Shown: positions 30,039 to 34,004 of the stretch, one piece after another | Layout: the number at the start of each line of letters is the position of its first letter | Position numbering within the stretch: the first letter of the stretch is position 1 | Sequence record: PQ438391.1 | Source of the DNA: Escherichia phage vB_Eco_T-01 | Reading direction: 5' to 3' (one strand) | DNA length: 64,000 bases | The notes under the pieces: model-generated | Told to the model about the DNA's origin: nothing | Seen by the model: the letters and a program-made list of their open reading frames with translations, nothing else | Databases searched by the model: none | Made by a program: the position numbers and the translations under genes

Positions 30039-30929
30039 ATGTCAGTAGTAATTAATAATGTCAATGCAGTAATTAAATCTTTAGTTAATAAGAAAATGAT
30101 GAATGAATGGACTGTACTTCGTCGTGGAGAGCCAGATAAATTTTTTCATAGATTTAACCCAACTTTGGATTTGAATGTTATTGACAGAGATGTTCATGCT
30201 GAAATTTTAGATAAATTTAAAGTTGATATTGGGTTTGGATTAGATAAACATTTACAACGAACAAACGGATCTGGAATGAGTTTATCTAATCGCATTATGA
30301 AAGCCCTTAATAAAATTGGAGCATTGTCTCGTATTAACGCGAGTGAAATCCTTCGCAATTATAATAAAGGATACGACCTTTATGGTCGACTAATGCCGAA
30401 ATTATCATTTGACCAAATGATTGCGGATTTGTGGGAAAATCAACGACGATTATTAGCATTAGGCGCTCGATTAGCTAAAGGTCTAGATAAACAAATGATT
30501 TTTAAGACCAATAATACAGAAGACCTTAAATGCTTTAAATTTAGTATTCGCGGAGATGATTATTACATCAGAGCTCGCTCTACAGATTATGTTAATATGG
30601 GACATCATCTCTGTTTAGCTTTTGAAGTTTTAAAAGAAGCCGGAACATTAGAATATTCGTCTGGTGCAAAATGCCCGATTGGTTCAAGTTGTATTTTAAT
30701 TTATCGCCAGGATGAATCCAGTTCATCTAAATTACCTACAAAACCTGTACCAGTTCGTAGTAACGAAAAACATTCTGAACAAATTGATTATTTTAATAAG
30801 CAAATTGAAGAGCTGAATATTTCTATTCAACAGTATGACGATGAAATTTTCAGACTATCTGGATTGAGTAGTAAAGTTAAATCTGAGCGTGAAAAGTTAA
30901 TTAAAATTATTGATTTACTTAAATCTTAA
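30039..30929 (+). CDS. hypothetical protein with C-terminal coiled-coil tail (array member 1)
   Basis: ATG at 30039 after GAGGA RBS; about 296 aa; heptad-like C-terminus. Confidence 0.5.
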   Translation: MSVVINNVNAVIKSLVNKKMMNEWTVLRRGEPDKFFHRFNPTLDLNVIDRDVHAEILDKFKVDIGFGLDKHLQRTNGSGMSLSNRIMKALNKIGALSRINASEILRNYNKGYDLYGRLMPKLSFDQMIADLWENQRRLLALGARLAKGLDKQMIFKTNNTEDLKCFKFSIRGDDYYIRARSTDYVNMGHHLCLAFEVLKEAGTLEYSSGAKCPIGSSCILIYRQDESSSSKLPTKPVPVRSNEKHSEQIDYFNKQIEELNISIQQYDDEIFRLSGLSSKVKSEREKLIKIIDLLKS

Positions 30930-30937
30930 GGAACACC

Positions 30938-31963
30938 ATGAAAACTCGTTCTCAAATTGAAGATATGGTTCGTAATGCCAGCTATACTCGTGATGTTATG
31001 ACATTTTTGTGCCAAAATAATTTAGACCCTGATAAAGTTAATCGTGATATTCACTTTAAGTATATGAATAGCAGTGAATGGTTACGTCATTTTAGTAAAG
31101 CGGGATATATTACACAAATGACTGCTCGTGAGCAGCTCACCGATTTCTGTAAAACTATTGATTATAAAAATCCTCTATTTGTTCAAGGCGTTGGTCAAAG
31201 TAAGGTCGATTTATCATCTGGATTTTTCAATCCGAATCATTATCGTATTGAATGGAGATTTATTGCTCTGTTCCGTAGACAATTAAAGCAAATTTTGTCT
31301 ACTGCTAGTCGATTAAAAGGTTCTGATATTAACTTAAAGAATCTTAAATTTGATGGTTATACTCTTCAGATGGAAGTAAGACCGTTAAAAGAAAATAATA
31401 GAACTGCACGAATTAGCTTTAAACCTAATACAAAAAATTCTCTTTCAATTTGTGAATGCCTTAAATCACAGTTGACAGAAGCATTTAAGTATATGGATGT
31501 TGTTGCTGCTGTTCAATCTAAGATTTTACCTCGTTTTGAACGATTTAAATTAGACACAACAACATATGAACTTGATATGGTTGTTTCATTTAAATATGAT
31601 TTTTTGAGAAAGGACGAAGTCCCGCAAGAGAAAAAGCAGGAAGTACAAGATAACTTAAATTTAAATTTATCCAATTACTTATCAAACGATCCTAAATTTT
31701 GGATGTATAGTTCAGGTAATAAAGATGCATGGAAATTTAATAAAGTGAATTTTCTTCCTATTGAAAATCCGAGTCTTAAACCTGTTGAAAAATGGCATGC
31801 AGATGCGATTGAGAAGTCTATCAAGGCAGTAGATGATGAACTCGTTAAAGCAACTAATGAAGTGTTAGAAGCTGAAAAGATGCTAGAAAAAGCTCAAGAA
31901 AAAGTAAAAAATCTCACGAAGCAACGTTCTAAATTGAACAACGCACTAAATGCACTGAACTAG
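30938..31963 (+). CDS. hypothetical protein with C-terminal coiled-coil tail (array member 2)
   Basis: 341 aa; C-terminal about 60 aa strongly helical. Confidence 0.5.
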   Translation: MKTRSQIEDMVRNASYTRDVMTFLCQNNLDPDKVNRDIHFKYMNSSEWLRHFSKAGYITQMTAREQLTDFCKTIDYKNPLFVQGVGQSKVDLSSGFFNPNHYRIEWRFIALFRRQLKQILSTASRLKGSDINLKNLKFDGYTLQMEVRPLKENNRTARISFKPNTKNSLSICECLKSQLTEAFKYMDVVAAVQSKILPRFERFKLDTTTYELDMVVSFKYDFLRKDEVPQEKKQEVQDNLNLNLSNYLSNDPKFWMYSSGNKDAWKFNKVNFLPIENPSLKPVEKWHADAIEKSIKAVDDELVKATNEVLEAEKMLEKAQEKVKNLTKQRSKLNNALNALN

Positions 31964-32020
31964 TTTACTTTGCCACAAGGATGTGGTATAATGTTCTTAC
32001 TTTCTACTGAGGAGATTAAT

Positions 32021-33022
32021 ATGACTCGTAACGAATATATCAAATCATTCAATAGCGTTATTGATGATAAAGCTATACCGATGTTTGGTCAAAATATCGT
32101 TCTTTCTATTATCAATCAATGGCTCAATAGTGTTGATGCAAGTATTGTTTCTTCTACTAAATTTATTCATGAAATTCGTAAAATTTCTAGCCGTGTAGAT
32201 AAAGATGTTATCAAGAAAACCTTTAAAGAGTCTCGTCTTCTTTCATATTTGGTTAATCGGGATATTCTTGGTAATTTTGGGAAAGAAATTAAACGAACCA
32301 AAGATGTAGTAGGATATAATTGGTTCGGTGATGTTAATTCTTATCATCTTAATAATAAAGAAGACCCTGAGAATATTTTTACTCGTCGTTGGATTAGTAA
32401 TTTCAGACTTTTCAAAGGACAGATTCTAAAATCAGCTTCTAAATTATGTTATGGCGATTATCGTCAAATTCATCCTTTGGCTTCTGATATGATTATCATA
32501 AAAGAATATGAACTTGATAAAAATAAAGTATCTATTTTTGTGAATTATGGATTTTTTACACCAGAAACTAACCAAAAGAACATTAATAAATTTTTCTCAA
32601 TTGCTAGCACTATAACTCGTCAATTAGAGACCGCATTACTTTGTATGGAAACAGTAGAAAATATTCATACATATCCTTTTAAGAATATATGCGGCTGGGA
32701 AGGATATAAAATTGTAATTAGTCTTCGTGAAGTGAAATGTACTTATTCACCTACTAGTAAAGAAATTTACCAACAAAAATGTGATGAAATTGTGAATACT
32801 CCTAAAGAAGAAACTACCCTTGAGGAACTAATGGATAATCTTGATGATTCGCCTGAACCGGCAGAAATTCGTCCAGAAGTTATTGCACTAGAAAAAGCTT
32901 ATAAAGAAGTTCTAGAAATTTCTAATAAAGCGCAGAAAGAATATGAGCAGGCTAAAAAGATTTGGGAAGAATCCGTTAATCGTCTTGATCGTCTTGAACA
33001 AGCTTTACAGTTAATTAAGTAA
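32021..33022 (+). CDS. hypothetical protein with C-terminal coiled-coil tail (array member 3)
   Basis: ATG at 32021 after GAGGAG RBS and own early promoter; 333 aa. Confidence 0.5.
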   Translation: MTRNEYIKSFNSVIDDKAIPMFGQNIVLSIINQWLNSVDASIVSSTKFIHEIRKISSRVDKDVIKKTFKESRLLSYLVNRDILGNFGKEIKRTKDVVGYNWFGDVNSYHLNNKEDPENIFTRRWISNFRLFKGQILKSASKLCYGDYRQIHPLASDMIIIKEYELDKNKVSIFVNYGFFTPETNQKNINKFFSIASTITRQLETALLCMETVENIHTYPFKNICGWEGYKIVISLREVKCTYSPTSKEIYQQKCDEIVNTPKEETTLEELMDNLDDSPEPAEIRPEVIALEKAYKEVLEISNKAQKEYEQAKKIWEESVNRLDRLEQALQLIK

Positions 33023-33074
33023 TTTAAAGCCAAGGATGGCTCGGAGTATAAACCATTAACCAAGTGAGAAGAAT

Positions 33075-34004
33075 ATGAAAACTCGTAAACATTATATTGA
33101 TTATTTTGACAGTCTTATTACTAAACACCGTAATTATCAGATCGGGCACAGAGCAGTAATCAATAATATTCTTCGTGATTTCCTTCAATATGTTGGTCAG
33201 GAAAATCATATCTGTAAAGATACTCAAAACGCTTATTCTCATTCGTTAGGCAATTTGCTTGAATGGTTTAAACGTTCTCGTATGTTATCTTCTACTGTAG
33301 CTCGTGAGAACATTAAAAACTTTATGAAGCCGAGCTTCATTAAATCTGAGACATCTATAACCGATTTGGTTGAATTTACTATTGTTAATGATGTTAAAAA
33401 GACCCATTTGGCTGATTGGTTATCTACCATTCCTGAAACTAAATTTGCTGATAAGTTCGCTTGTCAATTCAATGACCAAGTGAATATGCTTTTTAAGCAT
33501 GCTCGTAAACTATTTACCGCGGGCGATGACCGTACAAATACAGTTCATGCTAAGGACTGGGTTATTGCTGATGAAGTAACACACAAGCCAGGTGGTTCAT
33601 CAGTATTAATTAATATCCAGGTTCCTTATTATTACTCACGTAATCTTGGCACCATGACAGCTAAAGAAATTAATAAGCACAACAAAACTATTCGTTCGTT
33701 GTCTTATAAACTCCGCATGATGTTAAAAATTATGGACGTAGTGGAAATGTATGACGAAACCGAAGATAATGGTTCAATGTTATACAGTTCACGCATTCTA
33801 ATTAAACTGAAGAACCCTAATACATATAAGACAGTTGTAAAAGAGTCTAAAGTAGAAAAGGTTGATAATCTGAGTGAAGAACGTGAATATCTCAATGCCC
33901 GTTTGATTGAAGTTGAAGCCCAAATTGCAGAACACACCAAATTGTTAAAAGCTCTTAATGCAAAAGCAAATGGTTTACGTAATGCTATTGAGGTATTGAA
34001 ATGA
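33075..34004 (+). CDS. hypothetical protein with C-terminal coiled-coil tail (array member 4)
   Basis: 309 aa; ends in a helical heptad segment. Confidence 0.5.
   Translation: MKTRKHYIDYFDSLITKHRNYQIGHRAVINNILRDFLQYVGQENHICKDTQNAYSHSLGNLLEWFKRSRMLSSTVARENIKNFMKPSFIKSETSITDLVEFTIVNDVKKTHLADWLSTIPETKFADKFACQFNDQVNMLFKHARKLFTAGDDRTNTVHAKDWVIADEVTHKPGGSSVLINIQVPYYYSRNLGTMTAKEINKHNKTIRSLSYKLRMMLKIMDVVEMYDETEDNGSMLYSSRILIKLKNPNTYKTVVKESKVEKVDNLSEEREYLNARLIEVEAQIAEHTKLLKALNAKANGLRNAIEVLK

Follow-up and report, generated by a model that had tools for sequence, protein, structure and literature searches.

Paralogous nrdC.3 to nrdC.6 genes of a T4-like phage form one protein family with a probable role in counter-defence

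Positions 30039-34004 of a 64,000-nucleotide stretch of DNA from Escherichia phage vB_Eco_T-01 (PQ438391.1; the whole analysed stretch is called the window here) carry an array of four consecutive genes that, judged by comparison with the T4 reference map and by BLASTP against T4 open reading frames (ORFs), are the orthologues of T4 nrdC.6, nrdC.5, nrdC.4 and nrdC.3, in that order. We find that these four genes are paralogues in which body and C-terminal tail are both ancestral. They are probably diverged counter-defence genes, with heads and tails that descend from a single T4-family protein. Some of this ground was already known: the T4 ORFs have long been annotated, Pfam families (DUF7235, PF26897 and PF26899) and PHROGs 2257, 2351 and 1435 exist for them, with nrdC.3 and nrdC.4 already joined in phrog_1435, and one phenotype has been published, so that the array is not the undescribed system that the original prediction had proposed. 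What is new here is the recognition of one superfamily, its shared three-part architecture, a map of its conserved and variable parts, and the finding of relatives in or beside the same region in several genera of Straboviridae. Our literature searches found no paper whose main text names nrdC.3 or nrdC.6, nor any that connects the four genes with one another.

The window derives from a Tequatrovirus. A 3,987-nucleotide block spanning the array matches 656 phage records, nearly all from Tequatrovirus or its T4-like relatives in enterobacteria, and its top match is Escherichia phage REP1 (98.3%). The ORFs, starts and sizes (about 300-340 residues, all on the plus strand) are as first proposed. 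The nrdC.6 orthologue (30039..30929, 296 residues), the most divergent paralogue, is 97.7% identical by BLASTP to T4 NrdC.6 across residues 1-259. The nrdC.5 orthologue (30938..31963, 341 residues) occupies the same genomic position as its T4 counterpart and is 94% identical to it, and the nrdC.4 orthologue (32021..33022, 333 residues) is 97.9% identical to T4 NrdC.4. The last gene, nrdC.3 (33075..34004, 309 residues), is a divergent allele with only 60% protein identity to T4 NrdC.3. Shine-Dalgarno sequences precede all four ORFs; where alternative starts exist, the chosen ones at 30039 (nrdC.6) and 32021 (nrdC.4) have good Shine-Dalgarno sequences and give N-termini that agree with distant homologues.

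Family assignments follow the same pattern. The nrdC.5 protein matches DUF7235 (PF23882) over profile positions 1-307 of 307 with 410 bits (E 8.5e-123; gathering score 30 bits), and this model has no match in nrdC.6, nrdC.4 or nrdC.3. Full-length hidden Markov model (HMM) matches to PHROGs were found for nrdC.6 (phrog_2257, E 6e-150), nrdC.5 (phrog_2351, E 1.1e-171), nrdC.4 (phrog_1435, E 2.6e-168) and nrdC.3 (phrog_1435, E 1.2e-115), all three families being annotated as of unknown function. The PF26897 and PF26899 models did not turn up in our local Pfam scan of the window proteins. However, precomputed assignments to PF26897 (P0058) and PF26899 (P0123-P0130) exist for cluster representatives that share 96-97% identity with the window proteins, and it is therefore very likely that nrdC.4 belongs to PF26897 and nrdC.6 to PF26899. 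Searches of Pfam, NCBIfam and PDB sequences revealed no functional or enzymatic domain and no solved relative for any of the four proteins, and matches to designed helical repeats, Cas6b_C, PHL and MksE were set aside as sub-threshold noise.

The N-terminal bodies had been described as unrelated by eye, but BLASTP, HHalign, structure prediction and Foldseek all contradict this description and identify diverged paralogues with one fold. The closest pair, nrdC.4 and nrdC.3, is matched by BLASTP with an E-value of 5e-7 across 226 residues and by HHalign at 98.3%. When a joint nrdC.4/3 profile was enriched with the intermediates P0227, P0228 and P0234 from an exhaustive HMMER search, the nrdC.5 family aligned to it from residue 45 to the C-terminus (HHalign 96.7%, E 4.3e-10, 255 columns). 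The weakest link is that of nrdC.6 to the merged nrdC.5/4/3 profile (83%, E 8.8e-6, 117 columns). Weak pairwise HHalign matches between nrdC.6 and nrdC.5, nrdC.6 and nrdC.4, and nrdC.5 and nrdC.4 all fall in one register and cover the same two motifs, and among 65 window ORFs the best non-self match of each family HMM is another member of the array. P0234 acts as a bridge, with a body like those of nrdC.4 and nrdC.3 and a tail like that of nrdC.5 (BLASTP E 1e-6), and gp94 of phage fHe-Yen9-01, matched by the merged profile as well as by that of nrdC.6, is another bridging protein. Short DNA repeats inside the array lie mostly at non-collinear positions and, apart from the shared start ATGAAAACTCGT (MKTR) of nrdC.5 and nrdC.3, were not used as evidence.

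Predicted structures point the same way. AlphaFold2 (AF2) monomer models were made for nrdC.4 and nrdC.6, with predicted local distance difference test (pLDDT) values of 82 and 77. Judged by the order of elements and by common Foldseek targets, the two models are alike: both run from N-terminal helices through the motif-1 helix pair and short strands to the motif-2 helices, after which come a long helix set between two hairpins, the linker and finally the terminal helix. Foldseek searches of BFVD with the two models share eight distant Straboviridae targets at 10-17% identity (E about 1e-7 to 2e-3), which come from phages PM2, IME523, fHyAci03, Acj9, Acj61 (two proteins), Mineola and fHe-Yen9-01. 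Thus both body homology and, for the nrdC.4 and nrdC.6 models, common topology support the proposed NrdC.3-6 superfamily, and the profile comparisons, shared topology and common targets together identify the four genes as paralogues.

In each protein a disordered linker joins a basic alpha/beta body to a conserved terminal helix; in nrdC.6, for example, the body spans residues 1-226, the linker 227-243 and the helical tail 244-296. The body, of about 230-260 residues, comprises N-terminal helices, a conserved helical core with two motifs and a small alpha/beta domain. The bodies of all four proteins have isoelectric points of 9.1-9.4 and net charges of +8 to +10, whereas the tails are neutral to acidic. 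Motif 1 reads F-K-x-S-R-x-L-S-x-x-V-A-R-[DE]-x-[IL]-x-N-F and motif 2 reads W-x-x-x-F-(6)-I-L-K-x-A-x-K-L-x-x-G-D. Within orthologue groups, the two-motif core and the terminal helix are best conserved, and the N-terminal helices, beta domain and linker are most variable.

The core can be placed in each plus-strand gene. In nrdC.6 it lies at 30279..30518 (residues 81-160), with motif 1 at residues 90-108 (LNKIGALSRINASEILRNY) and motif 2 at residues 132-148 (WENQRRLLALGARLAKG). This segment is the part aligned to the other paralogues by HHalign, and its mean identity in distant family members is 66%, compared with 19-26% in the flanking segments. The nrdC.5 core, delimited by HHalign alignment, lies at 31070..31327 (residues 45-130; motif 1 F52-F70, motif 2 W107-D130). 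In nrdC.4 the core at 32201..32470 (residues 61-150; motif 1 F68-F86, FKESRLLSYLVNRDILGNF; motif 2 W124-D146) is the part of the AF2 model with the highest pLDDT, and its invariant or near-invariant columns are F68, S71, R72, L74, V78, F86, W124, F128, K141, G145 and R148. The nrdC.3 core, aligned by HHalign with that of nrdC.4, lies at 33255..33524 (residues 61-150), with motif 1 at F65-F83 (FKRSRMLSSTVARENIKNF) and motif 2 extending to about D151.

That each protein ends in a heptad helix, as had been noticed from the sequence, was borne out. The tails, about 45-55 residues long and amphipathic, are encoded on the plus strand at 30768..30926 in nrdC.6 (residues 244-296, with an invariant DDEIFRL motif and the ending KLIKIIDLLKS), 31793..31960 in nrdC.5 (residues 286-341, ending SKLNNALNALN, homologous to the P0234 tail), 32873..33019 in nrdC.4 (residues 285-333, ending DRLEQALQLIK) and 33861..34001 in nrdC.3 (residues 263-309, delimited by heptad scoring and conservation). 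Using a crude home-made score for heptad a/d positions, which is neither COILS nor MARCOIL and by which nrdC.4 is marginal, the protein-wide maximum falls in the tail of nrdC.6, nrdC.5 and nrdC.3 and was equalled in 2, 1 and 0 of 300 shuffles, in that order. In nrdC.4 the whole-protein maximum is located elsewhere, and its tail is the least canonical of the four. When the last 50 residues of the 65 window ORFs of at least 120 residues were ranked by this score, the array tails took ranks 1, 2, 3 and 7, and the chance of four named ORFs all being in the top seven is about 5e-5. The AF2 models place a terminal helix of 48 residues (285-332) in nrdC.4 and two helices (243-272 and 278-295) in nrdC.6, each tail being preceded by a disordered, low-confidence linker. 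Shuffles, window ranking and predicted helices thus agree on coiled-coil heptad periodicity, and the tails are real beyond chance expectation. A strong heptad helix, ranked fourth of the 65 ORFs, is likewise present at the end of the nrdC.8 orthologue (29041-29568, 175 residues), which lies two genes upstream; this protein has no Pfam match, and the array family HMMs give only E 0.39, although no dedicated test of relatedness was made.

The tails are not one shared module, however, and in this respect the idea of a common tail fails: each paralogue has its own tail sequence, conserved inside its orthologue group beyond the a/d positions. In nrdC.4 relatives P0121 and P0227, the bodies are 18-32% identical to the window protein while the tails are 63-76% identical. 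Tail-only profile comparisons gave P-values of 0.0013-0.11, against 0.02-0.58 for reversed-sequence controls, which by themselves are too weak to establish tail homology. That the tail is ancestral follows instead from the collinear alignment of nrdC.5 with nrdC.4/3, from P0234, and from a C-terminal ending, L-x-x-[AS]-[LI]-x-x-L-[KN], that recurs among the sequences as read. These observations bear directly on the model first put forward, in which four unrelated effector domains were each fused to a common coiled-coil docking module. Most pairs do lack significant similarity by eye and in plain BLASTP, all four proteins do end in a heptad helix, and Salmonella phage Manna (4215-5252; Manna_094) encodes an in-frame fusion of NrdC.6 (1-268) to NrdC.4 (256-333), joined across 21 nucleotides of homology at QQYDDEI / QQKCDEI, so a foreign tail is at least encodable in frame. 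Yet the profile-profile alignments, the shared topology and the common Foldseek targets contradict this model by indicating one fold, and the tails differ between paralogues and align weakly; we give it scarcely any credence. What stands of the proposed "family of effectors" is that there is one protein family, one member of which has a T4 orthologue that rescues infection of cells carrying Dsr1; the notion of variable heads grafted onto a common tail does not stand.

This rescue is the only published phenotype for the group. According to Srikant, Guegler and Laub (eLife 2022; PMC9391042), a T4 clone without nrdC.5 was unable to plate either on E. coli ECOR17 or on K-12 equipped with the dsr1 gene of that strain, and nrdC.5 supplied from a plasmid restored plating on Dsr1 cells; they describe nrdC.5 as an early gene. 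With 94% identity to T4 NrdC.5, the window protein presumably has the same anti-Dsr1 function by orthology. Dsr1 is a SIR2 NADase with a TPR sensor that, according to a 2026 preprint (PMC12803255), recognises the phage major capsid protein. Directly downstream of the array lie orthologues of nrdC.1 (34393-34635, 98.8%), 49.2 (35296-35616, 96.2%) and pin (35740-36225, 96.9%). Of the T4 products, that of nrdC.1 inhibits Septu (bioRxiv 10.1101/2025.11.20.689424), gp49.2 inhibits OLD (PMC13096335), and Pin is annotated on the T4 map as an inhibitor of the host Lon protease. These neighbours place the array within a run of counter-defence genes. All four array genes are non-essential in a saturating T4 transposon screen.

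The superfamily is confined to T4-like phages (Straboviridae). Among 50,697 phage records, nrdC.6, nrdC.5, nrdC.4 and nrdC.3 are present in 741, 581, 553 and 653, respectively, and all sequence-level carriers are T-even-like phages, nearly all with enterobacterial hosts. When 1.84 billion representatives were searched exhaustively by HMMER with the nrdC.4/3 profile, no more than 10 proteins came back, each of them nrdC.4/nrdC.3-like or a fragment of such a sequence, so there is no bacterial homologue from which a function could be borrowed. More distant members occur at or near the same location. Klebsiella phage Roth34 has one member in the searched region between nrdC.10 and the pin/gene 49 end (HHalign 96%, E 3e-9). 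Near nrdC.10 of Yersinia phage fHe-Yen9-01 there are at least two: gp94, downstream of that gene, matches both the nrdC.6 profile (P 9e-4) and the merged one (E 2.7e-6), and gp111, just upstream, is one of the Foldseek targets. The two targets from Acinetobacter phage Acj61, identified by length and UniProt order as Acj61p120 and Acj61p121, are adjacent, lie between nrdC and nrdC.10 as in T4 and both end in heptad helices. Sequence comparison does not detect them (HH P at least 0.012), and they are included by Foldseek and conserved position only. Sequence on either side of nrdC.10 in Aeromonas phage AhMtk13a and in Vibrio phage V07 yielded no member. Elsewhere in Acj61 (31228-33937), a nicotinamide phosphoribosyltransferase gene adjoins one for ribose-phosphate pyrophosphokinase; the two constitute the gene pair of an NAD+ reconstitution pathway, a means of countering defences that deplete NAD, SIR2 systems among them.

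The array genes are maintained by purifying selection while their content and alleles vary. Relative to T4, the ratio of nonsynonymous to synonymous divergence (dN/dS) is 0.12-0.30 for the four genes, from which we conclude that they are functional. Synonymous divergence of nrdC.3 from T4 is 1.05, compared with 0.07-0.24 for neighbouring genes, which are 94-100% identical; in the protein, the first 60 residues are 88% and the tail 77% identical, with 46-54% in the middle. This high value, together with the better-conserved ends, suggests that nrdC.3 was replaced by an old allele rather than that it went through a burst of change. At least three nrdC.3 allele classes are present in the phage database, at 95-99%, 73-78% (for example, Mosigvirus moha) and about 60% (T4, T2 and T6). 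Gene content is similarly fluid: ECO07P1 lacks nrdC.4; a deletion in ACG-C40 (5805-6216) leaves only nrdC.6 intact, with an nrdC.5 fragment and an orphan nrdC.3 tail; Manna carries nrdC.3 in addition to its fusion; P0056, on a contig of 167,058 nucleotides, is a 299-residue nrdC.5/nrdC.3 chimera; and in Sf25 (P0122) residues 177-259 of nrdC.6 are duplicated internally.

Such variation weighs against the view that the four proteins are subunits of one hetero-oligomeric machine, joined by complementary C-terminal helices and acting as a single system. The genes are adjacent and co-oriented, and there are four distinct tails, each conserved in its own orthologue group beyond the a/d positions, as this view would have it. 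However, gene content varies freely, as seen in ECO07P1, ACG-C40 and Manna, in Roth34 with its one detectable member, and in the unequal counts of the four genes. Moreover, plasmid-borne nrdC.5 alone restores infection on Dsr1 cells, although the paper's text does not state the extent of the deletion in that phage. We consider a joint machine very improbable, and an obligate hetero-complex was rejected because of the presence/absence polymorphism.

A family of counter-defence paralogues is favoured because it draws together the anti-Dsr1 activity of NrdC.5, the gene neighbourhood, dispensability, purifying selection, and copy-number and allelic variability. Since their paralogue NrdC.5 is known to disarm Dsr1, nrdC.3, nrdC.4 and nrdC.6 are good candidates for further anti-immunity factors. 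Under a mechanism of this kind, each paralogue would be a non-enzymatic, stoichiometric antagonist that binds a different host immunity protein, the target of NrdC.5 being the SIR2 NADase Dsr1. Target specificity would be set by the variable surfaces (N-terminal helices and beta domain), with the conserved core as a scaffold. The terminal helix may oligomerise the protein, giving avidity for oligomeric defence proteins, or may contact a conserved partner. Direct binding, surface specificity and the role of the tail are features that we infer indirectly.

Several points weigh against this interpretation. Only nrdC.5 of the four genes has any phenotype, and its mechanism is unpublished. The main text of the HIDEN-SEQ preprint lists nrdC.1, and none of nrdC.3 to nrdC.6, among its anti-defence hits, and in one of its conditional tables nrdC.3 to nrdC.6 have no significant effect (q = 1.0). 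The link of nrdC.6 to the other genes comes from the 83% HHalign match and predicted structures. Oligomerisation through the tail is putative, and in nrdC.4 the tail conforms poorly to a canonical heptad. The core motifs are strongly conserved (for example, NQRRLLALGARLA.G.DKQM.FKTN in nrdC.6) and could form a ligand or catalytic site, not a scaffold. Finally, the strongly basic bodies suit nucleic-acid binding at least as well as they suit binding to a protein sensor.

This last property raises an alternative in which the array encodes nucleic-acid-binding proteins for host takeover or regulation, each with a basic body and a dimerising helix, and in which the anti-Dsr1 effect of NrdC.5 is indirect. 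The charge of the bodies, the conserved basic residues of the core motifs and the early designation of T4 nrdC.5 all fit. In addition, the N-terminal helices of nrdC.3 (residues 30-86) give matches to the SAM-like DNA-binding domain of tyrosine recombinases (NCBIfam E 1.3e-3, 18 bits against a cut-off of 279; Pfam E 0.11, 13.2 bits against 22.3), all sub-threshold. Being so far below the cut-offs, they led us to discard nrdC.3 as a bearer of this domain. No significant match to any nucleic-acid-binding family or fold was found for the array proteins, the genes are dispensable on the laboratory host, and their allelic and copy-number variability is typical of arms-race genes. We consider a nucleic-acid-binding role unlikely.

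The small alpha/beta domain suggests yet another possibility, namely that it mimics a virion fold, that of a gpU-like tail terminator, and that the proteins are early decoys that occupy the pattern-recognition sensors of defence systems. There is similarity to lambda gpU-fold tail terminator and completion proteins, but it is weak and partial, covering about 100 of 333 residues, and the gpU fold has no counterpart to the N-terminal helices, core motifs, linker or terminal helix of the array proteins. Also unlike tail genes, T4 nrdC.5 is described as early and all four array genes are dispensable. Mimicry of this kind is improbable on present evidence. It can be extended to a bolder proposal, likewise improbable, in which the superfamily is a Straboviridae-wide set of continually diversifying, early-expressed immune-sensor decoys. 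Built on a tail-terminator-like alpha/beta scaffold, these would plug shape-recognising sensors of the Dsr1 or Avs type, with a different sensor for every paralogue and allele, and would form oligomers through the conserved C-terminal helix so as to match defence complexes that are themselves oligomeric.

Viewed as a family of counter-defence paralogues, the array has its closest known relative in T4 NrdC.5 itself, of which the second array gene is the full-length orthologue and the remaining three are diverged paralogues that share its architecture. In the sections of the original paper (PMC9391042) that deal with it, nrdC.5 is a single uncharacterised gene, presented without a mechanism, a structure or family relationships. 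Unlike NrdC.5, the products of nrdC.3, nrdC.4 and nrdC.6 have no reported phenotype. A functional analogue is DSAD1 of an SPbeta-like phage, which blocks the defence protein DSR2, a SIR2 NADase; published accounts describe it as counteracting or repressing DSR2 (for example, PMC11087589 and PMC10981675). The T4 internal proteins IPI, IPII and IPIII offer a different comparison, since they too are products of dispensable, host-range-determining genes and carry a shared N-terminal capsid-targeting sequence on different bodies, a logic of common tag plus variable body. The text of PMC9391042 that treats them describes the packaging motif held in common and the roles of IPI and IPIII. Unlike the internal proteins, the array proteins have homologous bodies and a shared element that is C-terminal and a long helix rather than a cleaved targeting peptide, and there is no evidence that they are packaged in the virion. 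Alt, ModA and ModB form another set of dispensable, host-range-determining T4 paralogues.

The window is oriented opposite to the T4 map. Upstream of the array are nrdC.11, nrdC.10, nrdC.9, nrdC.8 and nrdC.7, and downstream are nrdC.2, nrdC.1, nrdC, 49.2, 49.1, pin, gene 49 and nrdD. The 57-nucleotide spacer between nrdC.5 and nrdC.4 contains a sigma-70-type promoter-like site on the plus strand (31963..31992; GTTTACT, a 17-nucleotide spacer and TGgTATAAT) that matches the consensus at 10 of 12 positions and has a TG extension. It is close to the T4 early-promoter consensus. The presence of this site suggests that transcription of nrdC.4 and nrdC.3 need not depend on that of nrdC.6 and nrdC.5. 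At 34897-35285, where T4 has gene 49.3, the window has two small ORFs of 71 and 56 residues that match nothing in the T4 region, and this is another replaceable slot of the same accessory region. The upstream genes nrdC.11 (26220-27233), which matches the RlaP "RNA repair pathway DNA polymerase beta family" nucleotidyltransferase, and nrdC.10 (27610-28578), a P-loop NTPase with weak AAA/STAND-like Pfam matches under gathering scores, are far more widely conserved than the array that lies between them and nrdC. For nrdC.10 this amounts to 1,311 phage records, including jumbo phages (121Q and Atu_ph07) and Vibrio schizoT4-like phages.

Existing records contain several errors or oddities that touch the array. 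Hundreds of GenBank records of T4-like phages label nrdC.1 to nrdC.11, array genes included, as "thioredoxin". This label is wrong and has spread through the gene-name prefix from the true thioredoxin gene, nrdC. One GenBank record names a member "Mur ligase domain-containing protein". In the T4 reference NC_000866 (12067-12110, corresponding to window positions 30816-30929), nrdC.6 carries a one-nucleotide deletion (CTGAATATT to CTG-ATATT) that shifts the frame past codon 259 and removes the last 37 residues of the tail, a sequence that is still readable, nearly unchanged, in another frame. Because the T4 annotation in the HIDEN-SEQ preprint has a full-length nrdC.6 of 891 nucleotides, the NC_000866 version is either a strain-specific lesion or a sequencing error.

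The advance is incremental, in that it adds three uncharacterised paralogues of a known counter-defence gene rather than a new kind of system. Even so, T4 is the reference lytic phage, and yet the block of about 4 kb from nrdC.3 to nrdC.6 is still labelled "hypothetical" or, wrongly, "thioredoxin". The conservation map indicates that the N-terminal helices and the beta domain should bear specificity, with the core and terminal helix serving a shared function. Such knowledge may be of use in predicting the host range of therapeutic T4-like phages and in finding triggers or inhibitors of SIR2-type and related defences. For the biology of these phages, an orphan anti-Dsr1 observation becomes that of a family, with the testable prediction that its other members would counter other defence systems.

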